Shown here piece after piece: positions 47,213-47,735 of a DNA stretch of 64,000 nucleotides (position 1 is its first letter; the number at the start of each line of letters is the position of its first letter). Below the pieces are notes generated by a model. It was not told where the DNA came from. It ran no database searches and was given only the letters and a program-made list of their open reading frames with translations. This stretch comes from Escherichia coli (GTDB taxonomy: Bacteria > Pseudomonadota > Gammaproteobacteria > Enterobacterales > Enterobacteriaceae): assembly GCF_003334385.1 (NCBI RefSeq), contig NZ_QOWN01000006.1. The stretch is one strand, 5' to 3'. A program made the translations under genes and the position numbers.

Positions 47213-47237
47213 ACAAAAAAACCACCCGAAGGTGGTT
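47213..47237 (-). terminator. Rho-independent terminator of the tRNA operon
   Basis: Minus strand: accaccttcgggtggt hairpin followed by ttttttt. Confidence 0.85.
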
Positions 47238-47281
47238 TCACGACACTGCTTATTGCTTTGATTTTATTCTTATCTTTCCCA

Positions 47282-47368
47282 TGGTACCCGGAGCGGGACT
47301 TGAACCCGCACAGCGCGAACGCCGAGGGATTTTAAATCCCTTGTGTCTACCGATTCCACCATCCGGGC
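47282..47368 (-). tRNA. leuZ: tRNA-Leu (anticodon UAA)
   Basis: 87-nt reverse-complement match to the leuZ sequence I recall (GCCCGGATGGTGGAATCGGTAGACACAAGGGATTTAAAATCCC...CCA). Confidence 0.93.
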
Positions 47369-47380
47369 TCGGGAAGAAAG

Positions 47381-47454
47381 TGGAGGCGCGTTCCGGAGTC
47401 GAACCGGACTAGACGGATTTGCAATCCGCTACATAACCGCTTTGTTAACGCGCC
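47381..47454 (-). tRNA. cysT: tRNA-Cys (anticodon GCA)
   Basis: 74-nt reverse-complement match (GGCGCGTTAACAAAGCGGTTATGTAGCGGATTGCAAATCCG...CCA). Confidence 0.93.
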
Positions 47455-47508
47455 AAATTCTTCAGGCCTTTCAGCCAGACATCCGCTTGACGCCGATGTC
47501 TTTTAAAC

Positions 47509-47584
47509 TGGAGCGGGAAACGAGACTCGAACTCGCGACCCCGACCTTGGCAAGGTCGTGCTCTACCAACTGAGCTATTCCCGC
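47509..47584 (-). tRNA. glyW: tRNA-Gly (anticodon GCC)
   Basis: 76-nt reverse-complement match (GCGGGAATAGCTCAGTTGGTAGAGCACGACCTTGCCAAGGTCG...CCA). Confidence 0.93.
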
Positions 47585-47735
47585 ATTCATCAAGCAATCA
47601 GTTAATCACTTGATTTTATTATCGTCTGGCAATCAGTGCCGCCGTTCGATGCGTTGCATTCTACTTACCTGGCGCGATGAGTCAACGATATTTTTCACCA
47701 CTTTTGATCGTTTGCTGAAAATTACGCCGAAACGA

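Follow-up and report, generated by a model that had tools for sequence, protein, structure and literature searches.

The glyW-cysT-leuZ operon downstream of pgsA in Escherichia coli: a conserved promoter of its own, a sponge trailer and plausible read-through from pgsA

The stretch of Escherichia coli DNA analyzed here (hereafter the window; 64 kb of contig NZ_QOWN01000006.1) carries exactly three tRNA genes, all on its minus strand, as detected by ARAGORN. They encode tRNA-Gly(GCC) (glyW, 47509–47584; Rfam 69.1 bits), tRNA-Cys(GCA) (cysT, 47381–47454; 54 bits), and tRNA-Leu(UAA) (leuZ, 47282–47368; 57.7 bits); all three have an encoded CCA end and match the Rfam tRNA model with E-values of 1e-10 to 1e-14. 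The upstream neighbor is pgsA (47736–48284; 182 aa in the ORF list), whose RefSeq product is CDP-diacylglycerol--glycerol-3-phosphate 3-phosphatidyltransferase; it ends with a TGA stop codon at 47738–47736 and is separated from glyW by a gap of 151 nt. The downstream neighbor yecA (46421–47086; ORF list and annotation) starts 127 nt past the operon terminator. Annotation gives the order uvrY-uvrC-pgsA-tRNA-Gly-tRNA-Cys-tRNA-Leu-yecA, and tyrP lies on the opposite strand; the features described below are on the minus strand unless stated otherwise. The tRNA identities, the coordinates 47584–47282, and the spacers of 54 and 12 nt given in the original prediction are exact by both ARAGORN and the sequence, and its end of pgsA at 47736 agrees with the ORF including the stop codon. 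ORFs of 40–76 aa that overlie the tRNA genes on both strands were dismissed as mechanical artifacts.

The locus is the known glyW-cysT-leuZ operon of E. coli K-12 with its known 3'ETS-leuZ sponge, both of which are already published. The 701 nt between 47100 and 47800 show no difference from E. coli K-12 MG1655 (100% identity), and 5413 of the 5426 complete E. coli genomes contain at least 80% of this stretch. Sequence, gene order, neighbors, anticodons, and terminator do not differ from those of the K-12 unit (tRNA-Gly3, tRNA-Cys, tRNA-Leu5), and the anticodons GCC-GCA-UAA agree with the unit as given in PMC11480407. The unit is essential because cysT and leuZ are the sole genes of E. coli for tRNA-Cys and tRNA-Leu(UAA), respectively (PMC11480407). 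These two sole genes and the sponge trailer, all of them published, are what makes the locus matter; nothing about it is surprising to a specialist, and the read-through from pgsA is a small question. What has been added here is the comparative picture: about 80 enterobacterial species share a conserved promoter, leader, trailer, and terminator.

This picture is based on a scan for the cysT–leuZ junction in one genome per species, which yielded 85 loci from Enterobacteriaceae and relatives such as Edwardsiella and Enterobacillus. The order Gly-Cys-Leu is present in every locus of this set with enough DNA, and pgsA is located directly upstream of glyW in all loci with enough upstream DNA, at a distance of 137–171 nt (mode 151). 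The promoter region was aligned across 80 distinct enterobacterial pgsA–glyW intergenic regions, and the trailer was compared across about 77 distinct sequences.

The gap between pgsA and glyW contains a sigma-70 promoter (glyWp, 47658–47685) that matches the consensus in 10 of 12 positions, with TTGACT at 47685–47680, a 16-bp spacer, and TAGAAT at 47663–47658. It is followed by the GC-rich discriminator GCAACGC (47657–47651) and the predicted start, an A at 47650, and is preceded by the A-tract GAAAAATAT (47688–47696), which directly abuts the -35 hexamer. The -35 core TTGAC and the -10 hexamer TAGAAT are invariant in all 80 intergenic regions, the discriminator GCAnCGCATC is invariant or nearly so, and the A-tract is conserved to at least 90%. 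The sequence between these elements varies, which makes promoter and discriminator the best-conserved elements of the locus outside the tRNA genes. By itself, the consensus match carries no significance (3 promoter-like sites in 2.5 kb, with 2.2 expected in shuffled sequences), so that the promoter call relies on conservation and on the literature. The sigma-70 promoter and GC-rich discriminator that had been suggested for this gap are thus both present and conserved.

Two published observations support an active promoter at this position. A plasmid with nothing but the tRNA unit, driven by its natural promoter, complements the essential unit and supports viability (PMC11480407), so read-through from pgsA can contribute no more than an accessory share of the tRNAs. 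An NAD cap has been reported for the glyW precursor (PMC13273102), which implies initiation with an A in the leader; the sequence would place this start at A 47650. By the published UP-element consensus, the A-tract looks like a proximal UP-element subsite. With its near-consensus -35 hexamer, its 16-bp spacer, its GC-rich discriminator, and an A-rich stretch upstream of the -35 hexamer, glyWp resembles the P1-type promoters of rrn operons but differs from them in its -10 hexamer (TAGAAT instead of TATAAT). This combination of features, including the upstream A-tract, is typical of the growth-rate-dependent and stringently controlled promoters of stable RNAs, and glyWp may, by analogy, be stringently controlled as well.

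Both the leader and the first spacer of the operon are structured. The 5' leader of glyW (47585–47650; about 66 nt) folds into two hairpins (47650–47621 and 47614–47589) with a minimum free energy of -17.2 kcal/mol (z = -3.2), an arrangement that is shared by most species. Of the 73 distinct enterobacterial leaders, 62 have the second hairpin, which ends 3–4 nt ahead of the mature 5' end of glyW; its maintenance is mainly a matter of conserved sequence, with few compensatory changes. The 5' arm of this hairpin (AAUCAAGUGAUUA) is more than 90% conserved as sequence, and the partner arm varies. The 54-nt spacer between glyW and cysT (47455–47508) likewise contains two hairpins (-19.6 kcal/mol, z = -3.8), and its length differs between species (about 37 to 54 nt); the spacer between cysT and leuZ comprises 12 nt (47369–47380). 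When applied to the whole operon, RNAalifold returned the cloverleaves of all three tRNAs together with the terminator and the first hairpin of the spacer. Because their loops vary in length, the leader hairpins escaped it, and the leaders were therefore inspected sequence by sequence. One long-range helix in the RNAalifold result was judged spurious.

The operon ends with an intrinsic terminator (47213–47238) that consists of a perfect 8-bp stem (AAACCACC/GGUGGUUU, 47238–47219), a UUCG loop, and a run of seven U residues. It is the top candidate (-10.7 kcal/mol) in a custom scan for hairpins followed by a U-tract, which covered 1.3 kb of the minus strand (47100–48400). The stem covaries across species (ACCACC/GGUGGU versus ACCGCC/GGCGGU), and the similarity between species stops right past the U-run. 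A Rho-independent terminator has also been described for the end of the leuZ trailer (PMC6191717). A general promoter and terminator scan of positions 46500–49000 reported zero terminators, which is a false negative in the case of leuZ; it likely missed this terminator because a stem extended maximally through G-U pairs takes up part of the U-run.

Between pgsA and glyW (47735–47585), the custom scan found no intrinsic terminator candidate on the minus strand, which bears out the original prediction that no obvious terminator separates the two genes. Near the end of pgsA, a single signal resembles a terminator: a hairpin at 47772–47752 (minus strand; -5.4 kcal/mol), which is followed by UUUGCUUG and falls within the last codons of the gene. 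It was discounted as a terminator because of its weakness and its location in translated sequence. The absence of an intrinsic terminator makes read-through from pgsA into the tRNA genes plausible, and with it the co-transcription with uvrC-pgsA put forward in the original prediction.

The stop codon of pgsA is overlapped by an imperfect inverted repeat (TGATCGTTT-N16-AAACGATCA, 47705–47738), which folds into a 9-bp stem; the segment at the end of pgsA has a folding energy of about -11 kcal/mol. In the alignment of the 80 intergenic regions, both arms are retained in most Enterobacteriaceae, and the pairing of the 3' arm is lost in Klebsiella, Kluyvera, Pseudocitrobacter, and Siccibacter. The stem-loop was ruled out as an intrinsic terminator because it has no U-tract, shows no compensatory changes, and is absent from the terminator scan. 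Within the repeat lies the conserved block TTCAGCAAACGA (47719–47708), about -69 to -58 relative to the predicted start, which is kept as a sequence and not as a pairing partner.

The region between the CCA end of leuZ and the end of the terminator (47281–47213) forms a trailer of 69 nt. The original prediction had treated it as the terminator region; it does contain the single strong terminator of the locus but is more than that, because it corresponds to the published 3'ETS-leuZ sponge. RNase E frees this fragment from the precursor, and PAP I polyadenylates it for decay (PMC6191717; PMC7154689; bioRxiv 10.1101/2021.04.25.441314). 3'ETS-leuZ pairs with the small RNAs RyhB and RybB and thereby acts as a sponge (PMC6191717; PMC7154689; bioRxiv 10.1101/2021.04.25.441314), and both its binding to Hfq and a lowered activity of RyhB and RybB have been documented (PMC6191717; bioRxiv 10.1101/2021.04.25.441314). 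In position and in complementarity to RyhB and the 5' end of RybB, the trailer shows no sequence difference from the 3'ETS-leuZ of Lalaouna et al. (2015), as cited in PMC6191717 and bioRxiv 10.1101/2021.04.25.441314.

The pairing part of the trailer extends from the leuZ CCA to the terminator (47239–47281), with the RyhB site at 47260–47239 and the RybB site at 47263–47241. To our knowledge, this trailer was the first tRNA-derived sRNA sponge to be described. The duplex of RyhB (nt 34–56) with the trailer (nt 22–43) has a predicted energy of -32.5 kcal/mol, which none of 1000 dinucleotide shuffles equaled, and that of the 5' end of RybB (nt 1–19) with nt 19–41 of the trailer has -26.7 kcal/mol, which was equaled by 13 of 1000 shuffles; the absolute energies are inflated by long interior loops, and only the comparison with the shuffles is meaningful. 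The pairing with RybB is thus moderately better than chance. Essentially every E. coli genome contains the RyhB and RybB sequences used here at 100% identity, and Rfam confirms both (83 and 105 bits, respectively). The block AGAAUAAUCAAAGCAAUAAGCAGUGUCGUGAAACCACC...GGUGGUUUUUUU of the trailer is nearly invariant among the about 77 distinct sequences. Rfam 15 contains no model that matches 3'ETS-leuZ, and automatic annotation therefore does not flag it. Sub-threshold Rfam matches of the trailer to sroD (20 bits) and STnc130 (26 bits) were rejected, because they are driven by the terminator and score far below the gathering thresholds.

Taken together, it is very probable that the locus is a tRNA operon with its own promoter, a sponge trailer, and minor read-through from pgsA. 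In this model, glyW-cysT-leuZ would be transcribed mainly from its sigma-70 promoter, with a start near A 47650, and yield a primary transcript of about 437 nt that ends at the sole intrinsic terminator (47238–47213). RNase E would cleave just past each encoded CCA, RNase P would generate the 5' ends, and exonucleases would trim the 3' ends; the freed trailer (47281–47213) would bind Hfq and base-pair with RyhB and RybB, thus acting as a sponge. RNase E-dependent processing has been reported for this operon, in which an initial cut past each CCA precedes the action of RNase P and 3' exonucleases (PMC2190699; PMC3082872; PMC2241853). Polymerases leaving pgsA would probably continue through the tRNA genes to the leuZ terminator, because there is no intrinsic terminator in the 53 nt from the pgsA stop codon to the -35 hexamer, and the resulting minor co-transcript would be resolved by the same RNases. 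The model combines the anatomy of the locus, its conservation, the missing terminator between pgsA and glyW, and the complementarity to the small RNAs, all observed here, with the processing pathway, the sponge function, and the sufficiency of the tRNA unit with its natural promoter, which are taken from the literature.

A co-transcript of this kind has a precedent in secG-leuU, a known mRNA–tRNA co-transcript of E. coli that is resolved by RNase E and RNase P (PMC2241853). Here too, a coding gene is followed by a tRNA gene on the same strand, with a single intrinsic terminator past the tRNA. Unlike secG-leuU, however, glyW-cysT-leuZ has a strong conserved promoter between the coding gene and the first tRNA gene, and its co-transcription with pgsA is plausible from the missing terminator. 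A literature search returned no transcript data for or against read-through at the pgsA–glyW junction of E. coli.

This precedent, the empty terminator scan, and the conservation of both the pgsA–glyW adjacency and the length of the gap in all loci examined would also be compatible with tRNAs that are derived chiefly from the end of a long uvrC-pgsA-glyW-cysT-leuZ transcript, with a weak or inactive promoter in the gap. Nevertheless, we regard such an arrangement as highly improbable. Near-invariant hexamers, discriminator, and A-tract in 80 regions would be unexpected for a non-functional site, and a plasmid unit with only the natural promoter permits deletion of the essential chromosomal copy (PMC11480407). 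Also the NAD-capped, A-initiated glyW precursor (PMC13273102) speaks against it, and the literature treats glyW-cysT-leuZ as a separate unit (PMC3082872; PMC6191717; PMC2190699). At the other extreme, the share of read-through from pgsA could be zero if Rho or an unrecognized signal halts the polymerase. The pgsA transcripts would then end before glyW, either at the stem-loop at 47738–47705 or via Rho, and the two units would be insulated from each other without any co-transcript. The 9-bp stem, its folding energy, and the retention of both arms in most Enterobacteriaceae are consistent with such an insulation, but there is no U-tract past the stem, the custom scan is silent at this position, and the loss of pairing in the four genera named above is uncompensated. 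Moreover, the 53 nt of untranslated RNA up to the promoter and the about 150 nt up to the structured tRNA should, judged by the known requirements of Rho, be a poor substrate for Rho loading. Insulation of the two units is rather unlikely.

The same palindrome, whose center lies about 71 bp upstream of the start, may be a protein-binding site (e.g., for FIS) that activates glyWp, rather than an element of the pgsA mRNA. The conservation of TTCAGCAAACGA as a sequence rather than as a pairing partner would fit such a role, as would the 15-mer GGCGTAATTTTCAGC with its terminal G and C and its AT-rich center. The promoter-proximal FIS sites of rrn and tRNA promoters are situated at a comparable upstream distance, and the position of the block matches theirs. 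However, the match to the published FIS consensus is poor at the inner positions, there may be other reasons for the conservation of the 5' arm, and the literature gave no binding data for this site; we consider activation by a bound protein a tentative possibility that deserves some credence. A further, speculative and rather improbable combination is that a substantial share of the pgsA mRNAs has no terminator of its own and obtains its 3' ends solely from the cuts of RNase P or RNase E in a pgsA–glyW co-transcript, and that the glyW leader (the AAUCAAGUGAUUA arm) or the block at the pgsA stop codon is also regulatory. If this were true, the expression of pgsA, an essential gene of phospholipid synthesis, would be tied to tRNA processing, and the leader or the block would have a regulatory role, as the 3' trailer proved to have.

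Among other Enterobacteriaceae, the DNA past the leuZ terminator is variable, with yecA as the immediate downstream neighbor in only 10 of about 80 loci. In four loci (L016, L004, L053, and L038), genes of tyrosine integrases (PHROG_1, E-values of 1e-50 to 1e-70) adjoin leuZ at a distance of 0.1–1 kb past the terminator; they stem from an E. coli strain, an Enterobacter MAG, E. whittamii, and Raoultella ornithinolytica. The Raoultella sequence diverges immediately past the leuZ CCA, so its 3' trailer has been displaced. Outside the 64-kb window, the 3' flank of leuZ thus looks like an integration hot spot for islands or prophages; the window itself contains no such insertion at this site.

Elsewhere in the window, Rfam models scored above their gathering thresholds for the small RNA MicL (14684–14991, minus strand; 382 bits), C0465 (28982–29059, plus strand; 112 bits), and two elements of the ES036/CssrF type on the plus strand (10706–10748 and 57470–57511; 45 and 38 bits, respectively). 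A match to IRES_Bip inside pgsA was judged to be due to chance.
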